Below are positions 1 to 58,459 of a DNA stretch of 64,000 nt, piece by piece (positions within the stretch are counted from its first letter, which is position 1; each line of letters begins with the position of its first letter). Origin of the DNA: Heptranchias perlo (lineage: Eukaryota); assembly GCF_035084215.1 (NCBI RefSeq), contig NC_090363.1, positions 3,782,001-3,846,000 of the forward strand. Direction: 5' to 3'. The position numbers were made by a program, and so were the translations under genes. The notes below the pieces were generated by a model. The model worked only from the letters and a program-made list of their open reading frames with translations, ran no database searches and had not been told where the DNA came from.

Positions 1-1230
1 TAACTACCAACTCAGCTCCTGCAACCCCAGTGACTTACATTGAGAATACTGGAATTGAATTATTTTAATAAACTTCTGTTAAGCTTTTCCAGCACCTGTG
101 GTAGCAGGCTGTAGGAGAAGCAGCAGGGAGGAATCAACATTCAGTGCATTCATGCTGTTGCTACTTGTTTGTGGGATCATTTTAAAAAAAAACAATTTGA
201 CAAAAAAAAATTACCAAAGTTTATTTTTTTTGTTTGCTTTCCTTTGTAGCAGCCAATCATTTAGCTCCAGTGCCTATGTGTGACTCCATCCAGAACTGAG
301 ATCATGGAATGATACAGCACAGAAGGAGGCCATTGAGCCCATCACGCATGTGCTGAGATGTATCGCCGTGGCCTCTCAGTGGGCTGTGTGTTGGTGTAAA
401 TCTGGGCAGTGTCACAGAGCGATAGGCCAAAGGTTTGTTCCTCCACAAATGCAGGAAGGATGACAAGGGCAGGGAAGGTTTTTCTCAGAAGGGAGATAGA
501 GTGTTGCCCCTGGACGCTGTCTGCCAGTTGATTACAGAGTGATACAGGCAGAGAGGGGCCTGAGAGCAGGTTGCCTGCCTGCCTGCCTGCCTGCCACTTT
601 GGTCTCCGAACAGTATCTGTGTAGGGTTGAGGGAATCCAAAAGCAATGGGGAAGAAATAACTTAAATTAAAAATACATATAAATAAGTAGATAACATTTT
701 TTTAAAAACCCAAGGCAGGCTCACTATCTTATCCCCAACATTATCTGGGCAGTTAACATTTCTGGCAGATCTCCAGAAGAGAGCAAATCTTTTAATCCTT
801 GTATTTTCCTGGATGGAAGGTTGATGCTAAAAGATGTCATTAAGGGAACAGATTGCGCTATTTTCTAGAGTTCATTTTCATCCATAAAAGGTACTTAATA
901 AAGCCTGGCTTATATCCTGATATCTGGATCACAGGAGGTTTTATCTGATCAATATAAACCAGTCAGCTGTAATACATTCATATTATTTCATATGGAAAAT
1001 GGTTATTTTTATTTCAGTTTTACTTTTAATCTTGTTCGAATTATTAATCTGCCATATGCCAAATGCAAAATAAACCCCAAAATCAGTTTTTCAGGGTATG
1101 ATGGGAGATTGGAGCAAACATCCTTAATCCAAAAGACAAAAAGAATCCATTATGAAAACACAACACAGGTACCATTTTAAAATATCTACCGATCTCAAAG
1201 AAGTAGACCGAATAATCAGAAGGATCTTAC

Positions 1231-3414: not shown

Positions 3415-5974
3415 GAAGATGTTAAGGAGCAAGTTTTTAAGCAAGTACAGAGCCAGAGAAAGGGGGGAGGGAGGGGAGGGAAGGAAAGAACAAAAGGGAA
3501 GGTCTGTGATAGGGTAGAGGGCAAGAGTGATTAAATGACAAAAGGGATGATGGTGCAAGGCAAGGAAGGTAGTGATAGGACAAGTTAAGAAACAAAAGAT
3601 TGGTCAGAAGTAGCTGTAAATGGCAACAGCAGAACCATAACAGCAGCTGCAGTCCGACAAATTTAAAAAGTATATATTTTTTTTAAAATGGGGGCAGTGG
3701 TTATGCTCTGAAGATATTGAAATCAGTGTTGAATGGAAGGTTATAAAATGCCTAATCGAAAGATGAGATGCTGTTCCTCGAGCTTACGCTGAGCTTCATT
3801 GGAACAGTGTAAGAAGCCGAGTCAGAGTGGGAGTGGGAGTGGGAGTGGGATGGGGAATTAAAATGGCAAGCGACCGGAGCGGAGGTGTTCAGCAAAGTGA
3901 TCACCCAGTCTGCATTTGGTCTCCCCAATGTAGGGGAGACCCCAGCGAATATAGTATACTAAATTGAAAGAAGTACAAGTAAATCGCTGTTTCAACTGGA
4001 AGGAGTGTTTAGGGACCTGGACAGTGGGAACGGAGGAGGTGAAAGGGCAGGTGTTGTATCTCCTGCGCTCGAACGGGAAGGTGCCTTGGGGAGGAGAGCG
4101 AGTGTTGGGGGGTGATGGAAGAGTGGACCAGGGTGTCGAGGAGGGAGCGGTCCCTCCTGAAAGGGGAGAGGAGGGGAAGATGTGTTTGGTGGTGGAATCG
4201 TGCTGGAGGTGGTGGAAATGGCGCAGAATGGTACGTTGAAAGTGGAGGCTGGTGGGGTGGAAGGTGAGGTCAAGGGGGACCCTATCATGGTTCTGGAAGG
4301 GAAGGGGTGAGGGCAGATGTGCGGGAAATAGGACAGGCACGGTCGAGAGCCCTCTACAGTGGAGGGGAATCCTCGGTTGAGGAAAAAGGAAGACATATCT
4401 GAAGCACTGGTATGGAAGGTGGCATCGTCGAACAGATGCGACGGAGATGGAAAAACTAGGAGAAGGGAACATAGTTCTTACAGGAAGCGGGGTGGGAAGA
4501 AGTGTAATCAAGGTAGCTGTGGGAGTCGGTGGACTTATAATAGATATTGGTTGACAGCCTATCCCCAGAAATGGAGATAGAGAAGTTGAGGAAGGGAAGG
4601 GAAGAGTCGGAGAATGGACCATGTGAAGACGAGAGAAGGGTGGAAATTGGAAGCAAAGCTGATGAAATTTTCCAGTTCAGGGCAAGAGCAGGAAACAGCA
4701 ACGATACAGTCATCAATGTACCAAGAAAAGAGGTGAGGGAGGGGACCTGAGTAGGATTGGAACAAGGAATGTTCCATGTATCCCACAAAAAGGCAGGCAT
4801 AGCTGGGACCCATAACGGGTTCCCATAGCGACACCTTTTATTTGGAGGAAGTGAGTGGAGTTAAAGGAGAAGTTGTTCAATGTAAGAACAAGTTCAGCCA
4901 GGCGGAAGAGGGTGGTGGTGGTGATGGGGACTGGTTGGGCCTCCGTTGAAGGAAGAAGCGGAGGACCAGCAGGCCGTCCTTGTGGGTGATGGAGGTGTAG
5001 AGGGACTGGACGTCCATGGTGAAAAAGAGACCGGGGAACTGGAAACTGTTAAAGTGGTGGAGGGTGTCAAAGAGTCGCAGATGTAGGTCGGAAGAGACTG
5101 GACAAGGAGAGAAAAAAGAGTCAAAATAGGAGGAAATAAGTTCCTGGGGCAAGAACAGGCTGAAACGATGGGTCTCCCAGGGCAGTCCTGTTTATGGATT
5201 TTGGGAAGGAGGTAGAAGCGGGTTGTGCGGGGTTGGAGGCCGTGGGGGGAAGATCTCCAGAGGAGATGAGGTCAGTGATGGTCTGGGAAACTATGACTTG
5301 ATGTTCGGCGTTGGGGTCATGGTCCAGAGGGAGGTAGAAGGAGGTGTTGGAGAGTTGGCGTTCAGTCTCCGGAAGGTAGAGGTCTGTTCACCACACAACA
5401 ACAGCGCCACCCTTGTCAGCGGGTTTAATGACAATGTCAGGGTTAGACCTGAGAGAACGGAGTGTTACGAGTTCAGAGGGAGGTAGGATACAGTGAGTGA
5501 GGGGAATGGAGATATTGAAACGGCAGTTCGCAATGAAAAGATTAAGAGACAGTAAGAGGCCAGAGGGAGGGTGCAGCTGGAATGAGAATTCTGAAGATGG
5601 GAGAAAGGGTCTGCTGTGCAGGGGAAGACTCCTGGCCAAAGAAGTGGGCACGGAGGCGAAGACGATGGAAGAAGAGCTCAGCATAGTGTCGAGCTCAAAA
5701 TTCATTGAGGTGGGGGCATAAGGGGATGAAGCCAAGGCCTTTGCTGAGGACTGATCGTTCGGGGTCAGAGAGGGGAAGGTCAGAGGGAATAGTGAAAACA
5801 CGACAAAGGGTGAGATTGGAGGGATATCTTCTATCATTTATCTTCTGTTCTGTATGGTCTTTGTCATCTCTATTTAAAATATGATGTCATCACACTCAAG
5901 GGGTAATATTGCAAAGCTTTGCTCCTGGTGTGGAGCCTCATTAGACGGGAATGCAGTCAGAGTGCACATCTTCC

Positions 5975-13072: not shown

Positions 13073-13411
13073 CTCATAATTTGTAAGAACACAGCTGAGA
13101 AATTACTGCTGGCAATATTAGTGAATGAACAAGACACATTGATACATTTTTGTCTACTATTGTAACCGAGGTGTTTTATTATTTATTTCTTGGCTATTGT
13201 CGCATCTTAACTCGTTTTCCAGTTGAACGGTGGAACAGGCCCTTAAACTGCCCAAGGGAAGCATTGGGGCTGTACCAAGAATTACTTTTAATTGTTGAAT
13301 TTTTGTGCTCGTTAGTTGAGGGATGTCAGTAGTGTGAAAAGGATTGTTTTTAAAAATTTGGCACATAGTATTACTGTAAAAAAAACTCTTTGCTCTTCCC
13401 CAATATTTCTT

Positions 13412-13543
13412 GATGTGGAGATGCCGGTGATGGACTGGGGTTGACAATTGTAAACAATTTTACAACACCAAGTTATAGTCCAACAATTTTATTTGAAATT
13501 CACAAGCTTTCGGAGGCATCCGCCTTCCTCAGGTGAATGTGGA
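13412..13543 (-). mobile_element. Penelope family B terminal mini-element with hammerhead motif (13499-13537)
   Basis: Matches about 57853-57980. Flanked by the direct repeat aatatttctt (13402-13411, 13544-13553). Reads UUCAC-CUGAGGA-A-GGCGG(AUG)CCUCC-GAAA-GCUU-GUGAA. Confidence 0.82.
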
Positions 13544-14542
13544 AATATTTCTTAACAGTTGTTCACACTAAGGAGTAGCTAACTGAATATTTGCATTCTC
13601 AGCAATAATAATCTTGGGAGTGCGGTCGCTAATTTATTGCCAATTTGCACAAATGTGGGTTGACATTGCCCCAAATTTATTTTAGGGTCCTTATGGTTAG
13701 CAGACATGCGGTGTCAGATTCTAATCCAGTCATCACCGTTGAAGGACAGTCTGGTTGAGTTTCCGCTGGTTATATCAGGGCAATTAGGGCAGAATCGACC
13801 AAACCAGCGCAAAAGATCGGGGAATTTTAACCGCCGGTGAGTTACGCCCAAAACCATTTACATTCATGTTTTTCATGATCTTTTAAGCTGGTTCAAGATT
13901 AAATTCACCCGGATCTGGCCCCACCCACAAAACCGGCCACGTTCCCAGATCAAAATTGCGAGATTTCGCCAATTGCGCTAGCTCGGGAAGGCTCTTCAAA
14001 TTGCGTCATTTTCTTAGGCGCACAGGCACTAGTTGGCATGTTTGAAAAGTTTTTTCATATCAAAATTTACTAAGAAACTGACTAGTGTACACCAATGAAA
14101 CTATTAAATGGTTCAGAGTAGTTATTTTAAAGTAATTTTCAGTGATTTTAAATCAGGTCACTCACAGGTGGAGGACTGGACACCCTTATTACAAATGCTT
14201 ATTTTTGGTGATAAACCCATTTTCAGCTGTATTAATAAAACTGCTCCAGGTTATCACTCTTAAATACATCAAGGAATACTTTTTAATGGAAAGGAAAAGA
14301 AACAGCCTGATTGCACTGGTTCATGGAAGATTTTACATTTGTGATTGTGCAAATTAATTTGCACAGAACCTTGAATTGTAACCTGACCAGCGCAATTTCA
14401 AGCACATTGTGGGCGCAATTTCCCGATGGTGCCCGAAGCAGAAACTCTATCCTAGTGTGCTTATCCACTGCTTCAGCCAGTTTCCCTTCTAATTCAAGAT
14501 ATTCAAAAAGCTCTGCATTTCCCCTCCTCCCATTTAACTCAC

Positions 14543-26546: not shown

Positions 26547-27316
26547 GTGGTCTTACCGTTTAACCCGTATAGCGGCCACATCACGTTAGCACGAACGCTA
26601 TATGTGTTCAATCGTGGCTTTCAAAAGGGAATTGAATAAGTACTTGGAGAAAAAATTTGCAGGGCTTCAGGGAAAGGGCAGGAGAGTGGGACTAGCTGGA
26701 CTGATCTTGCAGAGAGCCGGTACGAGCTCGACGGGCCGAATGGCCTCGTTCTGTGCTATAACTATTCTATGATTCTATGCACTGGAGACTGTATACATAA
26801 TTCAGGTTTAAAATTTCAATGAAGTTTCCAGAGCAAGTCCAACCCGCAAGTAACCTAATTTGGTGATTGAATACTTTGCTGATTGGCGAGGGCACCCATT
26901 CTGCAACTATCTAAGTGGCTGCGCCCATCACAGTGGTGTCAACTCAGCAAATTCCATCTCCCCGTTGATTTTAATGGGGCTGGTGGAGCTATGATCATGA
27001 TCACTTTTCCCATGAGGATCTCTGTGGAGCAGCTCAAAAGGCCCATCAAAATTATGGCGTAGGGGAACACAATAGTGCAAGTCACTCACGCCGAATTTCC
27101 ACGCCGTAATAATGGTGTATGCCGTGGATACGTTATTACCACAGTGCAACTTTTCAGCAAATTAAAAATGGGAAGACTCCATGTTCAAGCCATCTGAGGT
27201 TTCGCAACCCCCCCGGGCACGTAAATGGGTAGGTGGGGAGGTCCCGGGTGTAAACAGGACCCTGGACCGAGGAGCCTGCATCTCACCGACCCCCTTCCTC
27301 TACCCTTCTCTTAGAG

Positions 27317-27415
27317 TTGTAAACAATTTTACAACACCAAGTTATAGTCCAACGATTTTATTTGAAATTTACAAGCTTTCGGAGGCTTCCTCCTTCCTCA
27401 GGTAAATCTCCACAT
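27317..27415 (-). mobile_element. Penelope family B mini-element with hammerhead motif (27367-27407)
   Basis: 13-bp TSD ccttctcttagag (27304-27316, 27416-27428). Reads AUUUAC-CUGAGGA-A-GGAGG(AAG)CCUCC-GAAA-GCUU-GUAAAU. Confidence 0.85.
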
Positions 27416-27461
27416 CCTTCTCTTAGAGGGAGGTGCAGACCGAGGGGAACCCAGGGCACAG

Positions 27462-27652
27462 CCCCAGTGCCCTAGTCCCAGAGCCCCAGTTTCAGTGCCC
27501 TAGTCCCAGAGCCCTAGTTCCAGTGCCAGTGCCCTAGTGGCCGAGCCCCAGTTCCAGTGCCCTAGTGGCCGAGCCCCAGTTCCAGTGCCCTAGTGGCCGA
27601 GCCCCAGTTCCAGTGCCCTAGTGGCCGAGCCCCAGTGCCAGTGCCAGTGCCC
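27462..27652. repeat. Minisatellite of about 28 bp at the start of NEU1 intron 1
   Basis: Repeated ccccagttccagtgccctagtggccgag units, about 6 copies with variants. Confidence 0.85.
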
Positions 27653-38522: not shown

Positions 38523-39073
38523 TCAGTGACCTTTAACCCCGAAGATTGTCAGCGGTGCTGAGTTTTTACCGTCATTATTCCATCCCGGACTGAAGATCGG
38601 AAAGAGTCTCTCGGTGAAAGTGTGGGTGAAAGTGTGGAGATGGGACATGTTGTCCGCATTGTAAAATGACACCTGTCCGCCCTCATAGTCCAGGTACACC
38701 CCGATCTTCCGGGGATCCACACTCGGGGTGAGGGGGGTCCGTGAGGGGGAGGTGGCGGCAAAATAGCGTCTTCCAGGTAACAGCCGTACAACCCAGTATC
38801 CGGACTGAGGATTCAGGCCGATTCCCCCTTTCCTCTCGGCAGACTCTCGGGCCACTCCCACACGCCACCAAGTCTTGTCCCCCACCTCCACCTCCCAGTA
38901 ATGTCTCCTTGATGTGAATCCCTCCGATCCCAGGACACAGGGCCAGAGATCAAACCTCTCCGGGGTGTCAGGGAGCCGCTGCTGTTTGTCTCCGAGTCTC
39001 ACACTGGTCCGGTCCTCAGACACGATGAGCCCGGGATGGTTTGTCTTCGGATCCAGAGTCAGAGAGGCTGGAG
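38523..39073 (-). CDS. TRIM copy 1 exon 6, PRY-SPRY (B30.2) domain
   Basis: (A)[24 protein letters not shown]...[27 protein letters not shown]...[17 protein letters not shown]...LFPIFSP; CAG acceptor at 39074-39076, stop at 38523. Confidence 0.95.
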
Positions 39074-39899
39074 CTGGGGGAGAGTGAAAATAACAGTCAG
39101 TGATTCAGTTTCTTGCTGTGATTTATTCAAACACTTTCCTGTTTAAAGTGCCCACTCGGGGGATTCCTGGGACCTCCGGTGTGTTTAAAGGGCTCCAGGT
39201 TCTGTTATTGGAATCTGCTCCCACCCGGGGGTTTACGCTCCTGGAACCGCTCTGACCTCAGGTGGACACTTCGATCATGACCCGCTGCAAGGAACCCCGT
39301 GGTCACCCAGTCCCCTGCGGCTCTCAGCCCCTGCACAGTGACCCAGGGGCCTTTAGAGATTCACAAGGAACCGGCGCCAAGAGGCTCCGACGTGGTTTGG
39401 AGGCACAATCTCGGCCTGAAGGCGTCACCCCTGATACCCCCACATCACCAATCAACGGGATCGCTGAGGGGAGAGGGGGAAGATACAGATACCAAGGGGA
39501 AAGAAAGAAGGGAAGGAAAAGAGTAAAAGAACAAAAGAGGGCAACTGCTGCAGAAAGGGAGAACGGAAAGAAACTAAACTCATCAGAGGGAATGGGAACA
39601 AGAACAGAACCCGCAGAGGGAGGGAGGAAAAGGGCCAATAATAAATAATTCAAGGGGGAAAAGTAGAAAAAGTAAGAGGGACAAAGAAGCTGCGGCCCAC
39701 AACTCGATCTGCCCAGGAACGCAAGCAAAACTGGAACAACCCCGCGTTCCCCACATCAGCATTCCTCACACTCGCCCCACGTATGGACAACACAGTAACC
39801 ATGAGTGGAGACCCGAACTGTGATCTTCACTCCCAACGGGTCAAGCTCCAAGCGGATACAGGGCATGAGGACAAGCAGTCGGAGTAATTTGGGGGCAAA

Positions 39900-40700: not shown

Positions 40701-41016
40701 GTATTGCAGGTTTCTGGAGGCAGTGGTTCTCTTTAATTCCATTCAGTACCATTTTTAATCCGATCCTTTGCAACTACTTAGGTCCTAAAGATATTCTCTT
40801 TGTTATAATTTGACTTATTATCATCGTATCAAGGTATGTTTTGGCACAGAAGGAGGCCATTTGACCGAGTGTGTCTGTGCCGGCTCTTTCAAAGAGCTAT
40901 CAAATTAGAACCACTCCCCTGCTCTTTCCCATAGCCCTGTAAATTTTTTCCCTTCAAGTATATATCCAATACCGTTTCGAAATATACCATTGAATCTGCT
41001 TCCACCACCCTTTCAG

Positions 41017-41603
41017 GCTACAAGAGCGAGTGACTCACCTCCTGACTCCCCAAAGCCTTTCCACCATCTACAAGGCACAAGTCAGGAGTGTGATGGAATA
41101 CTCTTCACTTGCCTGGATGAGTGCAGCTCCAACAACACTCAGGAAGCTCGACACCATCCAAGACAAAGCAGCCCGCTTGATTGGCATCCCATTCACCACC
41201 CTAAACATTCACTCCCTCCACCACCGGTGCACTGTGGCTGCAGTGTGCACTATCCACAGGATGCACTGCCGCAACTCACCAAGGCTTCTTCGACAGCACC
41301 TCCCAAACCCACGACCTCTACCACCTAGAAGAGCAGCAGGTACATGGGAACAGCACCACCTGCACGTTCCCCTCCAAGTCACACACCATCCCAACTTGGA
41401 AATATATCGCCGTTCCTTCATCGTCGCTGCGTCAAAATCCTGGAACTCCCTTCCTAACAGCACTGTGGGAGAACCTTCACTACGCGGACTGCAGCGGTTC
41501 AAGAAGGCGGCTCACCACCACCTTCTCAAGGGCAATTAGGGATGGGCAATAAATGCCAGCCTCGCTAGCGATGCCCACATCCCATGAACGAATAAAAAAA
41601 AAA
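41017..41603 (+). mobile_element. 3' fragment of the 60763-63932 LINE family, inserted into a minus-strand CR1
   Basis: THLLTPQSLSTIYKAQVRSVMEYS...HHHLLKGN with a poly-A end; the CR1 sequence resumes afterwards. Confidence 0.88.
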
Positions 41604-43267: not shown

Positions 43268-44019
43268 CTGAAATAAATAAAACACAAATCTGAGCTGACA
43301 GAGACTGACTATATCCTGACAGCAGAAATTACACCCAATTTGTTAGAAGTTGCTGATAATTCTAAATTCTCACTGCTGCCGACACTGGGAAAGAAAGAGG
43401 GTATTATAAAAAAGGATATAGAAGCACTGGAGAATGTCACAAGAATTCCACCAGAACTGAGAGGGTAAAACAATCAGGAAAGACTGAACAAGAAGATTGA
43501 GAGGTGACCTGATAGAGGTCTTTAAAATTATGAAGGTGTTCGATAGGGTAGATGTAAAAAACATGTTTCCACTTGTGGGGGATTCCAATGCCAGGCGCCA
43601 TAAGAAAAAGATAGTCACTAATAAATCCACTAAGGAATTCAGCAGAAACTTCTTTACCCAGAGAATGGTGAGAATGTGGAACTCGCTAACACAAGGAGTG
43701 GTTGAGGCAAATAGCACCTATGCATTTAAGGGGAAGCTTGATAAGTACATGAGGGAGAAAGGAATGGAATGTTATGCTGATAGGGTGAGATGAAGTAGGG
43801 TGGAGGAGACTCGTGTGGATCATAAACACCGGCATAGACCAGTTGGGCTGAATGGCCTGTTTATGTACTGTAAAATTCTATGTAGGATATATTTGAAAAA
43901 CAGACAGCAGAACTTACACCAAAATTATTAAATCCATCTGATAGAAACAGGGATACAGTTGAAAATCTGATTTGTGGAACAGGTACTGGAAATCAACATC
44001 AGTCCCATTCAGACACAGT

Positions 44020-45470
44020 GGGCGCTAAATTGGGCCGTGTAGTGCCCGTTGTTATGGCGCAACGTGGCCCCACGAACAACCAAGATGGCATCTTGGCTGC
44101 GCACGCCCATTTCCAGCGTGACGTGCGCGAGACACCATCCTGGTATAGGCGTTGGAGCATGCACAAATACTGAACACCAGAAGCATGTAAAGTAAGGAGA
44201 AAATGGTTGCAATCAGTGTGCAACGCTGATTTAAAGCAATAGACACCATTTTGGCACTTAACGCTCAACTCAACGCAGAGTCTTAACCACGATCATCTGA
44301 ACGTGTCTGAGAGTACCTGGAGGACCCCCCCTATGGCTATTTAAAGGGACCATGCAGGATTTACAGTTAGTGGCTGGATTATTGCTTCTGGCTGCCAATA
44401 CATTTGTAACTGTTTTTGGAGGTCTCCTAGACTTCAATACTAGAACGTGGGGACATAGCCTAACATTTAGAGCCAGGACGTGCAGGAGTGAAGTCAGGAA
44501 ACGCTTCTACGCGCAAAGGGTGGGAGAAGTTTGGAACGCTATTCTGCCAACGGCAGTTGATGCGAGCTCAGTTGTGAATTCTAAATCTGAGATTGATAGA
44601 TTTCTGTGAACCAAGGGTAATGAGGGATATGGAGTTAGGTCACAGGTCCACCATTGAATGGCAGAACAGGCTCGAGGGGCTAAATGTCACTGCCACTTGC
44701 TGCCTCCTGTTATGTGCCACCTGCTTCTGCAAGAAAGCGGGACGTGTGTCTGGGTGATGTGCCTGCCATGGTTGAATAGCTGGCAGTGTGTGTGGCCTGT
44801 GAGTTGTGGGAGGGCGGCTTGCACCAGTGGTAATGTGTAAGGGTGAGAGGAAGTATCTGATTGGAAAAATTGAGTACTGATGGAAAGAGCTTGTCAGTAT
44901 GTGGGTGATGGGGGTGTAGTGCATGGAGCAGTGGGTGCAGCTAGTGGTGCAGTTGGTAGGAGACGCTGCTTGACAGTTGACCTCAATCACCTTGACCACT
45001 CGTGTCAAAGCATTGAACTTCTTCCTGCACTGCATCCATGTTCATGATGCTGTGTGCCTGGAATTGACTTCATCCCCTACTGCATCCCACTGCCTTTTGG
45101 GCATATGTCTGGAGGGCCTCTTGCACCCCCCCGCCCCCCCCAACCCTGTGGAGATAGGATGTCCCTCCTTCTGTCCACCTCTTGGACCAAGGTCTCTTGT
45201 GCATCATCAGAGAACCTTGGTGCATGCACTCTCGCAGGCCTGGTACCAACTCAGATCAGGAGATTGGTGAGGTCTGGTGTGCAGATTGGAGGATGTGGGA
45301 TTTAGTAGTGTGCAACCTTTCTTCAATGTTTTAACATAACTCATCAGTGTGTAAACATAGGGACAGGTCCTGCTTCTGTGTTTTATATTTGCGATTTCTG
45401 AACACTGTTCAGACTCCGTGCAGACTGCAGACTTTTATTTTTAGCAAATAGATACCGGCTACCTTTAAGA
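44020..45470 (-). mobile_element. Harbinger-like remnant with Myb/SANT-like fragment in TRIM intron 3 (mirror at about 58995-60443)
   Basis: APRFSDDALEALVQEVNRRRDIL...WEAVGDEVNS..MQCRKKFNAL in the mirror copy; similar to the ORF at 23249. Confidence 0.55.
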
Positions 45471-46055
45471 GATTTTAGGAGACATCCTCCCTTTAAGAGA
45501 TTGGGACTTACCCTGCTGGTGGAAAATGCAAGTTGCATTGAATCCTCCTGTCAAGGCTGATTTCCAAAGCTGCTTGAAGGTGAGTACTGAGGCCGGATGA
45601 AAGTCTTGTCCTGCCTGTGCAGGGGCCATTGGGTGCAGGTTAATAGCGGATCGCGCTGCCCATGCCTGAAAATAGACCTTATCCAATTTTTTTCCCCAGT
45701 GACTCTCACACCCACCATCCCAGACACACCCACACACTCACATCATGTGACTGGAACTGTGAATTCCAGGAAAATATTAAACTTGGGGAACACAGAAATA
45801 ATTACAAGCTAAGTGTGAAGATCAGGGCAACTCATTCCCGGGGGGGTTGTAGGTATTCCCGGGATTCTGTAGATATTGTGGGAGGCCGATTAGTTCGGTG
45901 ACAATAGCAGATCCAGCGCAGAATACACAAAACAATCGATCGGTTCAAATCAGTTTCGAATTATTTGGGAAATGTTACATTTATTTCAAAATTCTCGCCC
46001 ATCATTTTGTGACTGTGTGGACTTTCACTGAACTAAACTGAAATATAATCCTCAC

Positions 46056-46289
46056 CTTCAGAAATATCAGTCCGTCTTTTTGCTCCATCTGTTTTTGCAA
46101 CTTTGAGAGCTTCTCCTGAATTGAATTTAAATTCTCTTGAATTTCTCGCAGATTTTTCTTCATTGTTTCTAGAATCTTCCCCTCTTGTTTCCTGAGATCT
46201 CTGATTAAACGCTGCTCTTTCTCAGTGAGAATCTGGTGCATTTTAGCAAACTCGGATGTGATGCGGGTCTGCAGACAGTTCGACTGTTT
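46056..46289 (-). CDS. TRIM copy 1 exon 3 (coiled coil, 234 nt)
   Basis: KQSNCLQTRITSEFAKMHQILTEKEQRLI...DGLIFLK; TAG acceptor, GTGAG donor. Confidence 0.92.
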
Positions 46290-46374
46290 CTACAAAATGA
46301 AATGTGAAAAATAATAATGTATAAAGGGACAAAACTAACCGAAATCCAAGAAAATCAGCACTGGGAGACCTTAC

Positions 46375-46470
46375 CCTAACTTCGGAAATCTTCTGTTTTT
46401 GTTTCTGTTCCGTTTCGAGAACCGCCGTTTTCTTCCCTGTGAGAGAATCTAAGGAAGATTTCAGCTGATC
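46375..46470 (-). CDS. TRIM copy 1 exon 2 (96 nt)
   Basis: [32 protein letters not shown]; CAG acceptor, GTAAG donor. Confidence 0.92.
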
Positions 46471-46559
46471 CTGGGATTGGGATAGAAAATCACAGAATAA
46501 AGTGTTAGACCATGAAAATGTGATAAAATAATCAGCTGATCAAATCTGTTCCATTTTAC

Positions 46560-46967
46560 CTTGTACATTTCAACAGCTTCTTTAATCGGCATGAAGTTGT
46601 GAGATTTGTGTTCCCGCGAATCTCTACAAATAAGACAGATCAATTTCTTGTCAGTTTCACAAAACAGCTTCAGTTCTTCCTGATGTTCCTCACAGTGAAG
46701 TTTATTTTCCTTCTCTTTCCGATTCAGGTTTAATTTTCGAGCTTTCTCGGCCAGACTCGCTAAGGCCCGATTAACCCTGAGGTTTCTTTCCGGAAACTCC
46801 TCTCTACATTCCGGGCAGGAGTTTATCTCCTTTCCCCAACACTGTGTGATACAGGAGCGGCAGAAGTTGTGCCCACACTCCAGTATAACCGGATCGGTGA
46901 AGAAATCAAGACAAATGGGGCAAATTGCCTCCTCGGTCCAACTCTCAGCCTGCTGCCTGGAAGCCAT
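46560..46967 (-). CDS. TRIM copy 1 exon 1 (RING + B-box2), TRIM39/TRIM27(RFP)-like E3 ligase
   Basis: [45 protein letters not shown] (C3HC4) and [29 protein letters not shown] (B-box). The six exons join to an open 475-aa frame. Confidence 0.95.
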
Positions 46968-48129
46968 GTTCAGTCTCAGCACTTCCTCATTCAAACCCCT
47001 TTCATTTTCGATGTTACTGAGCTGCCGAACACCTTCAGACCAGCGATTTCCTGATGAAGTTCACTGCAATACTCAGGAAATTCTTATAAACTAATCCATG
47101 TCCCATCGACTTTTACACAGGGAGACAAAATCTAGAACAGTATAAAGGACAAACAGTGTTAGAGGACGGAGGGGGAGATAATTGAAAGAGGCAGGGAGGG
47201 GCAGGGTACATGGAAGGTGGGCAGTGGGAGGAGGCAGAGAGGGGGAGAGTAATTGGAGAGAGGGAGGGAGGAGGCGGAGATGGGCGGGGATCGAGATTCC
47301 ATTGCACTTCGCCCCGGACTGAATTCACTGCCGTCTGTAAACCCTCTGGTGAAACACGGTGTAAGATATAGATCAATAAACTGAATTGAGTTAATGATTG
47401 TAGCCGCTCACACTAAAACACAAAGTTCCATAAATGGTAAGGAGCTGTCTGGAAGTTATGATCAGTTTCAGTACTTCCTGATTCAAACTGCTGGTGTCTT
47501 GTTTCTGTGGGTGGATTGAGACCCGGTTCCCAGTCAGAGATCTCTCTCTCTCTCTCTCTCGTCCCTGGAAGTGCTGTTCACATCAGGATGAAATAATATC
47601 GCATTTACAAAGTGACGTTTCGGGCTGCTCCCATCATCAGACTGAGAGACAAACGGGCATTTTACTCAGGCTGGGAAAACTGAGAGGGAAAAGGAGGAGG
47701 GGAGAGGAGAGGTCAATGCCGATTTGACAGAAATCGTTCTATTCCATAAATTTTGTGTGATGAGCTATCATGTTCCAATCCTGTCTTCGTATCCAATATC
47801 AGGTAGATTTTTTCTTTGAAATCAACAGAAAGAAGAACTTGCATCTATGAAGTGCTTTTGATGACCTCAGGATGTCCCAAAGCTCTTTACAGCCAATTAA
47901 GTACTTTTAAAAAAAGTGTAATCACTGTTGTAATGTAGGAAATGCAGCAACCAATTTGCGCACAGCAAGATCCCACAAACAGCAATGAGATAATGACCAG
48001 ATCATCTGTTTTTTTTAGTGAATGTTGGTTGAGGGATAAATATTGGGCCAGGACACCTTGAGATCGTGCCTTGGGATTTTTTACATCCACCTGAGAGAGG
48101 CACTTAAACCCACAACCTTCTTCCTCAGA

Positions 48130-48237
48130 TGTGGAGATTCCACATCGTTCACCTGAGGAAGGAGGTAGCCTCCGAAAGCTTGTGAATTTAAAATAAAATT
48201 GCTGGACTATAACTTGGTGTTGTAAAATTGTTTACAA
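48130..48237 (+). mobile_element. Penelope family B mini-element with hammerhead motif (48148-48186), left arm only
   Basis: TSD ttcttcctcaga (48118-48129, 48238-48249); empty site in the right arm near 54512-54523. Reads UUCAC-CUGAGGA-A-GGAGG(UAG)CCUCC-GAAA-GCUU-GUGAA. Confidence 0.88.
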
Positions 48238-49396
48238 TTCTTCCTCAGAGGCGTGGAGTGCTCCGACTGAGCTAAGGGTGACACCTTGGCGGAATCAGTG
48301 TGCAGAACTTTCAACTTAAGCAGGAATGTAAAACTGGCATTATCGGGTCATCTGCCCATTATACACCCCGCCAGATTCTCCCTCCCGTTGAAGTTGAAAG
48401 TTCCGCCTGTTGATTTCAATGGCAATGAAAATCGCCCAGTTTTGTGCCCAGACAGTAAGTTGAATTTCAAGCCCCCCAGTTTCTGGTGGGACATTCTGTG
48501 TTCTAACAACCCTCTATGCAAAACAAAGTTCTGCTCGCCTCTCCCTCCTTCAGGATTAAGGTAGGAGTGGGTGCAAAGGGGAATGAAAGAAATGGAACAA
48601 GAGCAGATTCAAAGGTGGTGCAATGAGTTCCGTGCCTGATTTCATTCGTTTTTTTGATGGTGTTTTCTCAGGGTAATAGCTTGCACTCGCAGAAAACTCT
48701 AAGGAGTGAAGGACGTGTAAAAATAATTCCGTTTCTGATTAATGCGGTTGGGTCAGGGACCAGCAAACTTGGAGTGAACGACCAGGAGGAGCAAATCAGA
48801 GGTTTGATTCCTGTACTTCTGCTTTCTGGTCACACGATGGCGCTGCTGCTCTGGGTTTGTGAAGTTTCACCATTTACATCGTCCAATGCCACCCTCTGCT
48901 GGAGACATGCCGCCACTACAGAATCAGCGTGGGTTTTTCCCCATTCTCCGGAACAAGGGGCTTTTAACCACCTGGATTGCCCTTGCATAGAGCCAGCATG
49001 GACTCGATGGGCCGAATGGCCTCCTTCAGTGCTGTAACCTTTCTGTTTTTAAATACAGTCACAGGATGTGTACAGCCAGAGTCCACAAGCACTGGGGTTT
49101 TGACACCAACATTGCCCAACTCTGTAAATTTCTATCAGATTTGTTTGTTGTGGATTTAATTTTGTGCCTGACTGAGACTTTACATTCTGCCCACTTTCAC
49201 GACTCGTGTTAATAGTGCGGTGCAGACGGCGGGGTGTGTTATCACAGACACCTAGGGGGTAGAAACAGGCGGAATCGCATCAGCCGCCTGTTCTACGCCT
49301 CGCCCGTTTCGATTGAAGTCACTGGAAGGGAAAAAATGGCGTAAATGGATGGATAATTCAATATCGCCCATTTTACACCATCGCCCAAAGATTAAA

Positions 49397-52300
49397 CGAG
49401 CACCCGACGGACCTGAATATCACACGGGGTGTATAACGGGCGAGCACCCGACGGACCTGAATATCACACGGGGTGTATAACGGGCGAGCACTCGACGGAC
49501 CTGAATATCACACGGGGTGTATAACGGGCGAGCACTCGACGGACCTGAATATCACACGGGGTGTATAACGGGCGAGCACCCGACGGACCTGAATATCACA
49601 CGGGGTGTATAACGGGCGAGCACTCGACGGACCTGAATATCACACGGGGTGTATAACGGGCGAGCACCCGACGGACCTGAATATCGCACGGGGTGTATAA
49701 CGGGCGAGCACTCGACGGACCTGAATATCGCACGGGGTGTATAACGGGCGAGCACCCGACGGACCTGAATATCACACGGGGTGTATAACGGGCGAGCACC
49801 CGATGGACCTGAATATCGCACGGGGTGTATAACGGGCGAGCACCCGACGGACCTGAATATCACACGGGGTGTATAACGGGCGAGCACCCGACGGACCTGA
49901 ATATCACACGGGGTGTATAACGGGCGAGCACTCGACGGACCTGAATATCGCACGGGGTGTATAACGGGCGAGCACCCGACGGACCTGAATATCGCACGGG
50001 GTGTATAACGGGCGAGCACCCGACGGACCTGAATATCGCACGGGGTGTATAACGGGCGAGCACCCGACGGACCTGAATATCGCACGGGGTGTATAACGGG
50101 CGAGCACCCGACGGACCTGAATATCGCACGGGGTGTATAACGGGCGAGCACCCGACGGACCTGAATATCACACGGGGTGTATAACGGGCGAGCACCCGAC
50201 GGACCTGAATATCGCACGGGGTGTATAACGGGCGAGCACCCGACGGACCTGAATATCACACGGGGTGTATAACGGGCGAGCACCCGACAGACCTGAATAT
50301 CGCACGGGGTGTATAACGGGCGAGCACCCGACGGACCTGAATATCACACGGGGTGTATAACGGGCGAGCACCCGACGGACCTGAATATCGCACGGGGTGT
50401 ATAACGGGCGAGCACCCGACGGACCTGAATATCACACGGGGTGTATAACGGGCGAGCACCCGACGGACCTGAATATCACACGGGGTGTATAACGGGCGAG
50501 CACCCGACGGACCTGAATATCGCACGGGGTGTATAACGGGCGAGCACCCGACGGACCTGAATATCACACGGGGTGTATAACGGGCGAGCACCCGACGGAC
50601 CTGAATATCGCACGGGGTGTATAACGGGCGAGCACCCGACGGACCTGAATATCGCACGGGGTGTATAACGGGCGAGCACCCGACGGACCTGAATATCGCA
50701 CGGGGTGTATAACGGGCGAGCACCCGACGGACCTGAATATCACACGGGGTGTATAACGGGCGAGCACCCGACGGACCTGAATATCACACGGGGTGTATAA
50801 CGGGCGAGCACCCGACGGACCTGAATATCACACGGGGTGTATAACGGGCGAGCACTCGACGGACCTGAATATCGCACGGGGTGTATAACGGGCGAGCACC
50901 CGACGGACCTGAATATCACACGGGGTGTATAACGGGCGAGCACCCGACGGACCTGAATATCACACGGGGTGTATAACGGGCGAGCACCCGACGGACCTGA
51001 ATATCACACGGGGTGTATAACGGGCGAGCACCCGACGGACCTGAATATCACACGGGGTGTATAACGGGCGAGCACCCGACGGACCTGAATATCGCACGGG
51101 GTGTATAACGGGCGAGCACCCGACGGACCTGAATATCGCACGGGGTGTATAACGGGCGAGCACCCGACGGACCTGAATATCACACGGGGTGTATAACGGG
51201 CGAGCACCCGACGGACCTGAATATCACACGGGGTGTATAACGGGCGAACACCCGACGGACCTGAATATCGCACGGGGTGTATAACGGGCGAGCACCCGAC
51301 GGACCTGAATATCACACGGGGTGTATAACGGGCGAGCACCCGACGGACCTGAATATCACACGGGGTGTATAACGGGCGAGCACCCGACGGACCTGAATAT
51401 CACACGGGGTGTATAACGGGCGAGCACCCGACGGACCTGAATATCACACGGGGTGTATAACGGGCGAGCACCCGACGGACCTGAATATCACACGGGGTGT
51501 ATAACGGGCGAGCACTCGACGGACCTGAATATCGCACGGGGTGTATAACGGGCGAGCACCCGACGGACCTGAATATCACACGGGGTGTATAACGGGCGAG
51601 CACCCGACGGGCCTGAATATCACACGGGGTGTATAACGGGCGAGCACCCGACGGACCTGAATATCACACGGGGTGTATAACGGGCGAGCACCCGACGGAC
51701 CTGAATATCACACGGGGTGTATAACGGGCGAGCACCCGACGGACCTGAATATCGCACGGGGTGTATAACGGGCGAGCACCCGACGGACCTGAATATCGCA
51801 CGGGGTGTATAACGGGCGAGCACCCGACGGACCTGAATATCGCACGGGGTGTATAACGGGCGAGCACCCGACGGACCTGAATATCACACGGGGTGTATAA
51901 CGGGCGAACACCCGACGGACCTGAATATCGCACGGGGTGTATAACGGGCGAGCACCCGACGGACCTGAATATCACACGGGGTGTATAACGGGCGAGCACC
52001 CGACGGACCTGAATATCACACGGGGTGTATAACGGGCGAGCACCCGACGGACCTGAATATCACACGGGGTGTATAACGGGCGAGCACCCGACGGACCTGA
52101 ATATCACACGGGGTGTATAACGGGCGAGCACCCGACGGACCTGAATATCACACGGGGTGTATAACGGGCGAGCACCCGACGGACCTGAATATCGCACGGG
52201 GTGTATAACGGGCGAGCACCCGACGGACCTGAATATCGCACGGGGTGTATAACGGGCGAGCACCCGACGGACCTGAATATCACACGGGGTGTATAACGGG

Positions 52301-52655
52301 CGAGCACCCGACGGACCTGAATATCACACGGGGTGTATAACGGGCGAGCACCCGACGGACCTGAATATCACACGGGGTGTATAACGGGCGAGCACCCGAC
52401 GGACCTGAATATCGCACGGGGTGTATAATGGGCGAGCACCCGACGGACCTGAATATCACACGGGGTGTATAACGGGCGAGCACCCGACGGACCTGAATAT
52501 CGCACGGGGTGTATAACGGGCGAGCACCCGACGGACCTGAATATCACACGGGGTGTATAACGGGCGAGCACCCGACGGACCTGAATATCACACGGGGTGT
52601 ATAACGGGCGAGCACCCGACGGACCTGAATATCACACGGGGTGTATAACGGGCGA
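49397..52655. repeat. 44-bp tandem satellite, about 74 units
   Basis: Unit cgggcgagcacccgacggacctgaatatc(a/g)cacggggtgtataa, nearly invariant, with no spacers. Confidence 0.98.
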
Positions 52656-53113: not shown

Positions 53114-55653
53114 TAGATTTAATTAATCACCGCATCCTGGACGCGCCTGGCTCTCGTTCTCCCTCCTGTCACAGGCTGGACCAGTTCCCAATGAAGATTC
53201 AACCATGCTGGTCGCTGCCAGTGATAGCATTCTGCAATATATAAGGTCACAGATTAATGGTAAAGTGATTAGTGACATCCCCTTATTTTTGTTAAACTGA
53301 GACTATCTCTACCTCCCTTTTTGCTCTTTAATGCTTCATTGCTCATCCTACTTCCCAATTCAATTCTCCTCACCATATCCCAGCTGGGGTCACTATATTC
53401 TTTTGGTTTGCACCCGAGAAGCATCACTCGGTATAAGTCTGTATCTTATATTTTGGGGAATCTGCCATAATACTTTATCGCCAAATATCAAGATCGGCGA
53501 GATTCAGTCCTTTCATCCCGATCGAAACAAGGCCTCAATTAGAAACATAGAAAGGTTACAGCACTGAAGGAGGCCATTCGGCCCATCGAGTCCATGCCAG
53601 CTCTGTGCAAGGGCAATCCAGCTGGTCCCACACCCCCGCCCTATCCCTGTCGCCCTGCAATTTTTTTCCTTTCAAGTACTTATCCAGTTCCCTTTTGAAA
53701 GCCATGATTGAATCTGCCTCCACCTGCATTCCAGATCCTAACCGCTTGCCAACATCCCTTCTCTCCTCTTCCCCTGCAGATGGCAAAGGTGGTTAAAAGC
53801 CCCTTGTTCCGGAGAATGGGGAAAAACCCACGCTGATTCTGTAGTGGCGGCATGTCTCCAGCAGAGGGTGGCATTGGACGATGTAAATGGTGAAACTTCA
53901 CAAACCCAGAGCAGCAGCGCCATCGTGTGACCAGAAAGCAGAAGTACAGGAATCAAACCTCTGATTTGCTCCTCCTGGTCGTTCACTCCAAGTTTGCTGG
54001 TCCCTGACCCAACCGCATTAATCAGAAACGGAATAATTTTTACACGTCCTTCACTCCTTAGAGTTTTCTGCGAGTGCAAGCTATTACCCTGAGAAAACAC
54101 CATCAAAAAAACGAATGAAATCAGGCACGGAACTCATTGCACCACCTTTGAATCTGCTCTTGTTCCATTTCTTTCATTCCCCTTTGCACCCACTCCTACC
54201 TTAATCCTGAAGGAGGGAGAGGCGAGCAGAACTTTGTTTTGCATAGAGGGTTGTTAGAACACAGAATGTCCCACCAGAAACTGGGGGGCTTGAAATTCAA
54301 CTTACTGTCTGGGCACAAAACTGGGCGATTTTCATTGCCATTGAAATCAACAGGCGGAACTTTCAACTTCAACGGGAGGGAGAATCTGGCGGGGTGTATA
54401 ATGGGCAGATGACCCGATAATGCCAGTTTTACATTCCTGCTTAAGTTGAAAGTTCTGCACACTGATTCCGCCAAGGTGTCACCCTTAGCTCAGTCGGAGC
54501 ACTCCACGCCTCTGAGGAAGAAGGTTGTGGGTTTAAGTGCCTCTCTCAGGTGGATGTAAAAAATCCCAAGGCACGATCTCAAAGAACAGCAGGGCAGTTC
54601 ACCCCGGTGTCCTGGCCCAATATTTATCCCTCAACCAACATTCACTAAAAAAAACAGATGATCTGGTCATTATCTCATTGCTGTTTGTGGGATCTTGCTG
54701 TGCGCAAATTGGTTGCTGCATTTCCTACATTACAACAGTGACTACACTTTTTTTAAAAGTACTTAATTGGCTGTAAAGAGCTTTGGGACATCCTGAGGTC
54801 ATCAAAGGCACTTCATAGATGCAAGTTCTTCTTTCTATTGATTTCAAAGAAAAAATCTACCTGATGTTGGATACGAAGACTGGATTGGAACATGATAGCT
54901 CATCACACAAAAATTATGGAATAGAACGATTTCTGTCAAATCGGCATTGACCTCTCCTCTCCCCTCCTCCTTTTCCCTCTCAGTTTTCCCAGCCTGAGTA
55001 AAATGCCCGTTTGTCTCTCAGTCTGATGATGGGAGCAGCCCGAAACGTCACTTTGTAAATGCGATATTATTTCATCCTGATGTGAACAGCACTTCCAGGG
55101 ACGAGAGAGAGAGAGAGAGAGATCTCTGACTGGGAACCGGGTCTCAATCCACCCACAGAAACAAGACACCAGCAGTTTGAATCAGGAAGTACTGAAACTG
55201 ATCATAACTTCCAGACAGCTCCTTACCATTTATGGAACTTTGTGTTTTAGTGTGAGCGGCTACAATCATTAACTCAATTCAGTTTATTGATCTATATCTT
55301 ACACCGTGTTTCACCAGAGGGTTTACAGACGGCAGTGAATTCAGTCCGGGGCGAAGTGCAATGGAATCTCGATCCCCGCCCATCTCCGCCTCCTCCCTCC
55401 CTCTCTCCAATTACTCTCCCCCTCTCTGCCTCCTCCCACTGCCCACCTTCCATGTACCCTGCCCCTCCCCGCCTCTTTCAATTATCTCCCCCTCCGTCCT
55501 CTAACACTGTTTGTCCTTTATACTGTTCTAGATTTTGTCTCCCTGTGTAAAAGTCGATGGGACATGGATTAGTTTATAAGAATTTCCTGAGTATTGCAGT
55601 GAACTTCATCAGGAAATCGCTGATCTGAAGGTGTTCGGCAGCTCAGTAACATC

Positions 55654-55682
55654 GAAACTGAAAGGGGTTTGAATGAGGAAGT
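55654..55682 (+). promoter_or_regulatory. IRF/ISRE-like GAAACTGAAAG plus ETS-like GAGGAAGT just upstream of the TRIM ATG
   Basis: GAAANNGAAA match at 55654-55663 (GAAAATGAAA in copy 1 at 47000-47009). Motif match only. Confidence 0.35.
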
Positions 55683-55695
55683 GCTGAGACTGAAC

Positions 55696-56106
55696 ATGGC
55701 TTCCAGGCAGCAGGCTGAGAGTTGGACCGAGGAGGCAATTTGCCCCATTTGTCTTGATTTCTTCACCGATCCGGTTATACTGGAGTGTGGACACAACTTC
55801 TGCCGCTCCTGTATCACACAGTGTTGGGGAAAGAAGGAGATAAACTCCTGCCCGGAATGTAGAGAGGAGTTTCCGGAAAGAAACCTTAGGGTTAATCGGG
55901 CCTTAGCGAGTCTGGCCGAGAAAGCTCGAAAATTAAACCTGAATCGGAAAGAGAAGGAAAGTAAACTTCACTGTGAGGAACATCAGGAAGAACTGAAGCT
56001 GTTTTGTGAAACTGACAAGAAATTGATCTGTTCCATTTGTAGAGATTCGCGGGAACACAAATCTCACAACTTCATGCCGATTAAAGAAGCTGTTGAAATG
56101 TACAAG
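55696..56106 (+). CDS. TRIM copy 2 exon 1 (RING + B-box2)
   Basis: Same protein as copy 1 with one extra Lys; GTAAA donor at 56107. Confidence 0.94.
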
Positions 56107-56192
56107 GTAAAATGGAACAGATTTGATCACCTGATTATTTTATTGTAAACAATTTTACAACACCAAGTTATAGTCCAGCAATTTTATTTTAA

Positions 56193-56233
56193 ATTCACAA
56201 GCTTTCGGAGACTTCCTCCTTCCTCAGGTAAAT
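56193..56233 (-). ncRNA. Hammerhead ribozyme motif (inverted arm)
   Basis: AUUUAC-CUGAGGA-A-GGAGG(AAG)UCUCC-GAAA-GCUU-GUGAAU. Confidence 0.78.
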
Positions 56234-57852
56234 GTTCAGGAGCTCCTCGAAGCCTACGCATTTATACATATAGAACAATACATGGTGTTTACAGAATGCC
56301 CCTGCAACTGCCCGTTGCCAAGGCAATCACCGTGTTCAGACAGAGAGGTGTCACCTGCAGAACCCCCGAATACACATTCAACAAAAAAACAAACAGGGAA
56401 AAAAAACAGAGAGAGGCAGAAACATCCGGAAGGCATAGAAAGCCAGCAAATGACCCATTATATTAAAAACAGATAACATTTGTTCGCTGGTGGGGTAACG
56501 TGTAGCGTGACATGAACCCAAGATCCCGGTTGAGGCCGTCCTCATGGGTGCGGAACTTGGCTATCAATTTCTGCTCGACGATTTTGCGTTGTCGTGTGTC
56601 TCGAAGGCCGCCTTGGAGTACGCTTACCCGAAGGTCGGTGGATGAATGTCCATGACTGCTGAAGTGTTCCCCGACTGGGAGGGAACCCTCCTGTTTGGCG
56701 ATTGTTGCGCGGTGTCCGTTCATCCGTTGTCGCAGCGTCTGCATGGTCAAAGAGGCCATCCCCTATGGACAGGCCCTGCGAATACACAGGGTCTGCTCAG
56801 ACGAGGAGGAACGCGATGGACACCTACAGACGCTGAAAGACGCCCTAGTAAGAACGGGATATGACGCTCGACTCATCGATCGACAGTTCCGACGGGCCAC
56901 AGCAAAAAATCGCATAGACCTCCTCAGGAGACTAACACAGGATGCAACCAACAGAGTACCCTTTGTCGTCCAGTACTTCCCCGGAGCGGAGAAACTATGC
57001 CATGTTCTCCGCAGCCTTCAACATGTCATCAATGAGGACAAACACCTCGCTATGGCCATCCCCACACCTCCACTACTCGCCTTTAAACAGCCACCCAACC
57101 TCAAACAGACCATCGTTCGCAGCAAATTACCTAGCTTTCAAGAGAACAGCGTCCACGACACCACACAACCCTGCCACGGTAACCTCTGCAAGACATGCCA
57201 GATCATCGACACAGATACCACCATCACACGAGAGGACACCACCCACCAGGTGCATGGTTCATACTCCTGTGACTCGGCCAACGTTGTCTACCTCATACGT
57301 TGCAGGAAAGGATGCCCCAGAGCATGGTACATTGGCGAGACCATGCAGACGCTGCGACAACGGATGAACGGACACCGCGCAACAATCGCCAAACAGGAGG
57401 GTTCCCTCCCAGTCGGGGAACACTTCAGCAGTCATGGACATTCATCCACCGACCTTCGGGTAAGCGTACTCCAAGGCGGCCTTCGAGACACACGACAACG
57501 CAAAATCGTCGAGCAGAAATTGATAGCCAAGTTCCGCACCCATGAGGACGGCCTCAACCGGGATCTTGGGTTCATGTCACGCTACACGTTACCCCACCAG
57601 CGAACAAATGTTATCTGTTTTTAATATAATGGGTCATTTGCTGGCTTTCTATGCCTTCCGGATGTTTCTGCCTCTCTCTGTTTTTTTTCCTGTTTGTTTT
57701 TTTGTTGAATGTGTATTCGGGGGTTCTGCAGGTGACACCTCTCTGTCTGAACACGGTGATTGCCTTGGCAACGGGCAGTTGCAGGGGCATTCTGTAAACA
57801 CCATGTATTGTTCTATATGTATAAATGCGTAGGCTTCGAGGAGCTCCTGAAC

Positions 57853-57893
57853 ATTTACCTGAGGAAGGAGGAAGTCTCCGAAAGCTTGTGAAT
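57853..57893 (+). ncRNA. Hammerhead ribozyme motif (Penelope 3' terminus)
   Basis: AUUUAC-CUGAGGA-A-GGAGG(AAG)UCUCC-GAAA-GCUU-GUGAAU. Confidence 0.78.
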
Positions 57894-58044
57894 TTAAAAT
57901 AAAATTGCTGGACTATAACTTGGTGTTGTAAAATTGTTTACAATTGTCAACCCCAGTCCATCACCGGCATCTCCACATCATGATTATTTTATCACATTTT
58001 CATGGTCTAACACTTTATTCTGTGATTTTCTATCCCAATCCCAG

Positions 58045-58140
58045 GATCAGCTGAAATCTTCCTTAGATTCTCTCACAGGGAAGAAAACAGCGGTTCTCGA
58101 AACGAAACAGAAACAAAAACAGAAGATTTCCGAAGTTAGG
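58045..58140 (+). CDS. TRIM copy 2 exon 2 (96 nt)
   Basis: [32 protein letters not shown]; CAG acceptor, GTAAG donor. Confidence 0.92.
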
Positions 58141-58225
58141 GTAAGGTCTCCCAGTGCTGATTTTCTTGGATTTCGGTTAGTTTTGTCCCTTTATACATTA
58201 TTATTTTTCACATTTCATTTTGTAG

Positions 58226-58459
58226 AAACAGTCGAACTGTCTGCAGACCCGCATCACATCCGAGTTCGCTAAAATGCACCAGATTCTCACTGAGAAAGAG
58301 CAGCGTTTAATCAGAGATCTCAGGAAACAAGAGGGGAAGATTCTAGAAACAATGGAGGAAAATCTTCGAGAAATTCAAGAGAATTTAAATTCAATTCAGG
58401 AGAAGCTCTCAAAGTTTCAAAAACAGATGGAGCGAAAAGACGGACTGATATTTCTGAAG
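58226..58459 (+). CDS. TRIM copy 2 exon 3 (234 nt); later exons expected beyond the window
   Basis: KQSNCLQTRITSEFAKMHQILTEKEQ...DGLIFLK; TAG acceptor, GTGAG donor. Confidence 0.92.

Follow-up and report, generated by a model that had tools for sequence, protein, structure and literature searches.

The short insertions analyzed here are by-products of a known kind of element and not a new kind. Sequence likeness assigns them to a Neptune-type Penelope-like family of Heptranchias perlo (the linker of which is also common to Nematis), and the peak of their breakpoints tracks the TATA box in the family's pseudo-LTR (pLTR). We consider it about 70% probable that these stubs are complete copies of a short RNA that would start ~30 nt behind the TATA box, with RT primed at both ends of the tail and running off the RNA 5' end. 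What the copies display directly are TSDs, family membership, the lack of a clade of their own, a pair of sharp outer ends separated by 35 nt, a TATA-tracking peak, and near-identical paired arms.

Short insertions in the window

A preliminary description, made from sequence alone, had reported three short elements in the window (the whole 64,000-nt stretch of DNA analyzed). All three are present at the positions given there, each with an exact TSD (13, 12, and 10 bp). As described, 27317-27415 and 48130-48237 (minis 1 and 2) consist of a tail-less terminus head-to-head with the last 10 nt of the tail, and 13412-13543 is a single terminus with the full tail (a solo). Mini 1 comprises a left TSD (27304..27316, +), a tail-less arm with predicted minimal hammerhead and terminus (27317..27407, -), the last 10 nt of the tail in opposite orientation (27406..27415, +; the junction overlaps the other arm by 2 nt), and the right TSD (27416..27428, +). 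In mini 2, the left TSD (48118..48129, +) shares a base with the last 10 nt of the tail (48129..48138, -), which is followed by the tail-less arm with hammerhead and terminus (48138..48237, +) and the right TSD (48238..48249, +). The solo arm, with hammerhead, terminus, and full tail (13412..13543, -), lies between TSDs at 13402..13411 (+) and 13544..13553 (+).

The inner ends are close to the hammerhead, as had been claimed. Measured upstream from the 5' strand of stem I, they lie 0, 9, and 5 nt away in mini 1, mini 2, and the solo; from the C of the CUGA core, the distances are 6, 15, and 11 nt (by the TSD in the solo). The copies match three subfamilies in which the spacer between TATA box and core measures 38, 46, and 41 or 44 nt, respectively, and counted within their own subfamilies they end at TATA+32, TATA+31, and about TATA+27 to +30. 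A 7-mer at the inner ends 48138 and 13543 was considered as the product of a template jump from tail to ribozyme; this was rejected because the 7-mer is native upstream sequence of other subfamilies.

All three copies share 94.5–96.7% identity with the 3' end of a long element in the window (56144-57980; E 1e-36 to 1e-56). The target of mini 2 also occurs empty, with a single copy of the 12-mer (54511..54522, -), in an inverted duplication within the window, where the flanks of the filled and empty sites are 99.9% and 97.4% identical; 48130-48237 is thus a real, recent insertion. The long element likewise has an empty paralogous site (46523-46534), so both insertions are recent and their TSDs real. 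For the 27317 and 13412 copies, no empty site was found in the window or in retrieved loci.

Parent family

The long element has a 5'-truncated sense arm (56745..57980, +) with the ORF end (CX4CxxC linker, GIY-YIG), 3' UTR, promoter, hammerhead, terminus, and tail, and an inverted tail-less arm (56144..56745, -) that is 99.8% identical to it, flanked by a 12-bp TSD (56132-56143 and 57981-57992). The sense arm is 97.5% identical to an intact unit in L143 (G000:C1:4460500-4470400), a partial tandem of one truncated and two intact 902-aa ORFs (intact units 3081 bp) that is likely an active source locus. Units run TATA box, minimal hammerhead, terminus, 35-nt tail, ATG. In the long element, the TATA box lies at 57820..57826 (+) and is kept in all subfamilies, 36–47 nt ahead of the ribozyme core. 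The putative transcription start, at the breakpoint peak (TATA+29 to +31), corresponds to 57849..57851 (+). The candidate minimal type I hammerhead spans 57853..57893 (+; core C at 57859, palindromic AAGCTT replacing helix III, predicted cut after 57887), and the 35-nt tail spans 57944..57978 (+), with the ORF ATG directly next in tandem copies. The motifs TCATTTC and CCACACT at TATA+27..30 are ones that we take to be initiator-like.

The family carries the features of EN+ Penelope-like elements: a single ORF with RT and C-terminal GIY-YIG endonuclease; a pLTR with an optional 30–40 nt tail, inverted 5' copy, and TSD; and a minimal hammerhead, as judged by sequence, in the pLTR. Its CX4CxxC linker between RT and endonuclease agrees with the CX2-5CxxC linker of Neptune, which marks Nematis too. 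The 902-aa ORF matched Pfam RVT_1 (E 3e-10); its GIY-YIG motif was read by eye, and the Pfam search of the ORF gave no GIY-YIG match. The hammerhead was recognized by eye and by comparison with PMC4209133, with no hammerhead match in an Rfam search at E ≤ 1. It is supported by the core boxes, stems I and II with covariation among subfamilies, and the palindromic helix III; cleavage is predicted. RNAfold produced stems I and II in three of four folded copies and stem I alone in the remaining one. Genome-wide, a tail 21-mer had 49 201 exact matches, a lower bound on tails in the genome, and a terminus 22-mer had 59 705. Outer ends were sharply bimodal, with either 0–9 or 34–45 nt of tail (3/469 intermediate).

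Breakpoint map

We determined the break of each arm by extension against 128 long reference arms. The hypothesis set comprised loci L031-L180 (C1, first 6.5 Mb; L091-L120 were chosen with slight bias). The held-out set comprised 180 new loci picked by the three flanking bases outside the element (60/60 returned plus 120/140 others listed). After five duplicates and two unassignable arms were dropped, 474 arms remained (171 hypothesis and 303 held-out), the few arms present in both sets being counted as held-out.

Truncation points, which the preliminary description had proposed to plot relative to the hammerhead, are non-random: 210/474 arms break within 25 nt around the front edge of the ribozyme. 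The break rate peaks at 0.080/nt at TATA+29..31 (62 breaks in 474 arms), with 0.044/nt and 0.038/nt in the flanking 3-nt bins (TATA+26..28 and +32..34), 0.019/nt at TATA+35..44, 0.004–0.006/nt across ribozyme and terminus (0.004 at TATA+55..90), and 0.0014/nt upstream (TATA -100..-1). The held-out arms alone gave 0.092/nt at the peak vs 0.0014. A permutation test of the window share (62 vs a shuffled maximum of 55) has some circularity and is given no weight. Shoulders flank the peak (37 arms at TATA+10..25, 69 arms at +35..44), and these require heterogeneous starts, trimming, or a second cause. A minor cluster at core -31 coincides with a duplicated ATTTC, a repeat of the initiator-like motif.

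The predicted cut site showed no peak (one arm at core+29; 15 in +27..33 vs 66 over +12..50), and truncation by ribozyme cleavage was therefore rejected. Between TATA box and core, no conserved hairpin was found (-0.1 to -9.9 kcal/mol); an upstream hairpin as RT stop was rejected for this lack of conservation. In a genome-wide count for one subfamily, 6389 arms reached the start motif, 3417 of them also with the TATA box, and 1102 were counted at a control 10-mer further upstream. Nothing is drawn from these counts, since the control 10-mer is polymorphic (3/8 arms match, 8/8 continue natively) and the control void.

TATA box or ribozyme

The TATA-core spacer differs among subfamilies (36 to 47 nt), which makes a peak that follows the TATA box separable from one that follows the ribozyme. 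The peak tracks the TATA box. Among held-out arms reaching core -13, 24/40 with a long spacer broke at -13..-19, vs 4/68 with a short spacer (p 9e-10); among all arms the fractions were 42/73 vs 11/125. For breaks within core -8..-19, the ratio of -8..-12 to -13..-19 was 14:24 with long and 28:4 with short spacers (p 2e-5). The main peak accordingly lies at about core -8..-10 with a short spacer and -15..-18 with a long one. When subfamilies were called from downstream sequence only, a weaker test because 88/215 arms were ambiguous, the shift gave Mann-Whitney p 0.005 (held-out) and 0.048 (all), with Fisher p 0.45 and 0.07. The share of breaks at core -8..-12 is similar in both classes (short-spacer 34/159, long-spacer 17/90), so a trimmed or ribozyme-linked share is possible.

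The preliminary description had offered, as one of two readings, a preferred RT stop or template switch at the ribozyme fold. In every subfamily, breaks do cluster immediately 5' of stem I, the 69 arms at TATA+35..44 overlap the 5' strand of stem I, and the break share at core -8..-12 is alike in both spacer classes. However, RT approaches the fold from the 3' side, and the rate there is just 0.004–0.006/nt; at the peak the fold has been fully copied, the rate inside it is ~20-fold lower, and the main peak moves with the spacer. A stop or switch on leaving the fold is thus unlikely. A sequence-specific stop or join at the initiator-like motif, which shifts along with the TATA box, may also produce such a peak. 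We think it quite improbable that the peak arises by joining or later loss, whether an AT-rich initiator-like motif favors microhomology or long palindromes collapse there by deletion. Junction microhomology (with an identical 6-nt overlap in L003, L008, and L015) and the minor cluster at the duplicated ATTTC speak for it, but AT-rich patches at or above the TATA box break at only 0.0014–0.004/nt, solos lacking an inverted partner peak in the same zone (9/29 at TATA+28..33), and mini 2 is very young according to its empty paralog. It is more doubtful still that the RNA 5' end results from processing (a splice acceptor or other cut) and not from initiation. The D. virilis Penelope intron is described as ending at the 5' end of helix I in the accessible text of PMC4209133, but the short arms share no common upstream exon (shared upstream sequence is native to the subfamily, inverted arms, or flanking repeats), and the peak lies at TATA distance, away from the hammerhead cut site. 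Solos ending at TATA+28..32 gave no cap signature: 1/8 has extra bases ending in G. One assembled contig (four runs, one sample; presumed RNA) joins the tail end to the ribozyme front, a structure that genomic tandems can explain.

Paired arms and proposed mechanism

Short inverted pairs are the most frequent type of insertion (148 pairs with a median of 232 bp; 108/148 ≤300 bp), and 138/148 have a TSD (mode 12 bp). In the 96 pairs with both arms spanning the ribozyme, the arms differ by a median of 1 nt, vs 7 for random pairs. Over the pairs as a whole, the two arms tend either both to pass the start zone or both to stop by it (39:8 vs 7:94). This joint stopping fits a mixture of short and long RNA templates; simultaneous synthesis would give the same pattern.

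Under the start-and-run-off reading, the pseudo-LTR promoter would fire ~6–17 nt before the ribozyme core, giving an RNA in which start, ribozyme, terminus, and tail take up ~130–145 nt. The endonuclease would make a staggered cut of ~12 nt, and both DNA ends would prime RT, one at the tail end and the other at the terminus (cf. the anole element in vitro). RT would read through the uncleaved ribozyme and run off the RNA 5' end, and the two cDNAs would be joined head-to-head via short microhomology. Usually both arms would reach the start region, leaving a palindromic insertion of ~230 bp; a tail-primed arm halting after 10–45 nt would yield a ~100-bp mini, and use of a single end a solo. Since the stubs carry no TATA box, they would be dead on arrival and hence form no clade.

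In L1 twin priming, two target ends prime one insertion and microhomology joins the products, and in retroviral minus-strand strong-stop DNA, a cDNA primed close to the RNA 5' end runs off after a short distance. Unlike in either, the internal sites of priming here would be two and fixed, and both arms usually copy one and the same part of the template, for which two RNA copies or two passes over one are required. More tentatively, Penelope-like elements could prime RT ~100–140 nt from the RNA 5' end, with strong-stop-like cDNA made from each of the cut ends. The majority of this family's insertions would then be run-off products, and long copies would depend on a template jump or on tandem read-through RNA. 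Retrozyme arrays such as the one on C13 described below could arise when jumps are repeated or when the unit forms a circle.

Minis and the lineage question

The other reading offered in the preliminary description was a non-autonomous retrozyme-like mini-family. We searched for a strict pattern (tail end head-to-head with the ribozyme front), which had 127 matches genome-wide. The first 30 of these loci held 26 true minis and four ordinary inverted pairs (L012, L020, L024, L026). True minis kept 10–25 nt of tail (exactly 10 nt in nine) and had a TSD of 11–15 bp in 23/26; their junctions varied, the few recurrent ones occurring where longer microhomology is present. In unselected samples, a tail arm ≤50 nt was found in 4/474 arms (nine flagged, five false).

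A tree from 93 columns compared 29 mini-labelled rows (the 26 true minis, two window copies, and the mislabelled L012) with 94 long copies. The tree comes from a short alignment and leaves many forks open; rejection of a mini clade is independent of those forks. The AU test rejected that clade (p-AU 1.7e-63), six sets of identical rows include both mini and long copies, and minis are interspersed among long copies, so the suggestion that short copies might form their own clade fails. The scattered placement, the frequency of 4/474, and only 24 direct head-to-tail junctions genome-wide together indicate that minis are not a lineage; they are the rare end of a continuum.

A mini-family spreading via its own small circular RNA is, for these copies, largely refuted, and we give it hardly any credence. 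In its favor are a mild clustering of the mini label on the tree (20 changes vs a shuffled mean of 26) and one insertion on C13 in which four head-to-tail 143-bp units share the same junction. Yet the label clustering stems from a search pattern that omits one large clade, and the 24 head-to-tail junctions stand against 49 201 tails. Apart from the rejected clade, the window copies fall into three subfamilies, and minis are single and inverted, with one ribozyme each, varied junctions, and no promoter. Non-LTR retrozymes are arranged in tandem, carry two or more ribozymes, and form their own lineage of copies; the window minis and solo are single, and the AU test rejects such a lineage.

In the C13 array (L371-L373, G000:C13, ~53,555,500-53,556,100), an inverted tail-less arm accompanies four 143-bp units arranged head-to-tail, which run from the start region to the ORF start with one common junction; the whole lies inside an apparent 11-bp TSD. 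It alone shows the tandem organization of retrozymes and is a retrozyme-like array born from the pLTR of this Penelope-like family.

Comparison with known systems

The following comparisons draw on the accessible portions of the cited papers. Canonical EN+ Penelope-like insertions consist of a pLTR, an inverted 5'-truncated copy, a 30–40 bp tail, and a TSD (PMC8557442, PMC3846280). Our family shares the head-to-head layout, one-ended tail, TSD (9–15 bp), partial tandems, and TATA box plus initiator-like motif in the pLTR; unlike in those descriptions, its usual product is tiny, and its breakpoints are mapped and track the TATA box. A putative TATA plus initiator was noted in rotifer pLTRs (PMC3846280), the D. 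virilis start was located in the pLTR (PMC8557442), and PMC4209133 describes the minimal hammerhead and opposite-strand ribozyme pairs 100–700 bp apart. Layout, tail, TSD, minimal hammerhead, and putative TATA and initiator in the pLTR are thus already described in what these three sources report; the TATA-tracking test of breakpoints is new here. A literature search, with most subscription papers and supplements outside its coverage, found no publication mapping genomic breakpoints to the promoter.

In Poseidon of Anolis carolinensis (PAc), cutting and extension take place on both strands, synthesis starts from two sites bounding the tail, and insertion does not need ribozyme cleavage (PMC11167929). 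Our bimodal tails (0–9 or 34–45 nt) match those two start sites, and the genomic copies likewise point to two initiation sites bounding the tail and to cutting and extension of both strands. In PAc, ribozyme and tail lie inside the ORF start, whereas here both lie in the 5' UTR with the ATG after the tail, and the family here has the Neptune/Nematis zinc-finger linker. Inverted junctions were attributed to self-priming in PMC3846280; as sole cause, fold-back self-priming was rejected because a 10-nt arm cannot yield a 95-nt arm. Two priming events would better account for a tail arm of 10 nt next to a tail-less arm of ~95 nt.

A pLTR-retrozyme link has been drawn before (bioRxiv 10.64898/2026.07.22.740005, PMC7229834). 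Like non-LTR retrozymes, the short copies would have a type I hammerhead, derive from a pLTR, and lack protein; unlike retrozymes, which are tandem, have two or more ribozymes, and form circular RNAs, minis here are single and inverted. The 'monomers' of the preprint (bioRxiv 10.64898/2026.07.22.740005), as defined in its available text, would include copies such as 13412-13543.

The copying mode of Penelope-like elements and the purpose of their ribozyme are still to be settled according to PMC11167929 and PMC8557442. Young insertions of this family number in the tens of thousands, and its subfamilies, alike except for the distance between promoter and ribozyme, amount to a natural experiment. 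The outcome speaks for uncleaved RNA, copied as far as its start, as the template, for priming by both target ends, and against a role of the ribozyme in setting insertion length; the findings also suggest a route from pLTR to retrozyme. Nucleotide-level predictions follow for CAGE and an in vitro assay. If the strong-stop-like reading is true, the promoter of any such family could be located from genomic breakpoints, with no need for RNA data.

Other features of the window

Two strict-pattern minis lie <21 kb apart in the window, with only 127 matches genome-wide. About 0.16 windows with two such minis are expected genome-wide by chance; the pair is a coincidence for which we have no explanation, and the two are the only rows from the window's contig (C42) among the 67 listed. 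A GC-rich 14/28-bp tandem array (27464-27652) lies 35 bp from mini 1. The inverted duplication (43701-48973 vs 53787-60762) is recent (97–99.9% identical) and covers a TRIM gene region. Two TRIM first exons (RING, B-box) are present in it, one at 46461-47060 (-) and one at 55624-56148 (+). For an insertion in either arm, the opposite arm has the empty site, and the center of the duplication is a 44-bp unit repeated 74 times (98% matches; 49397-52655). A PRY-SPRY exon of a TRIM-type gene lies at 38523-39104 (-), and a long LINE-type RT ORF at 61056-63868 (RVT_1 E 2e-39), with a 94% identical 3' fragment at 40994-41603. A decayed fragment at 3858-4676 (-) shows weak likeness to the family's endonuclease end (28% over 146 aa, E 1e-5) and probably represents a second, distant Penelope-like family.
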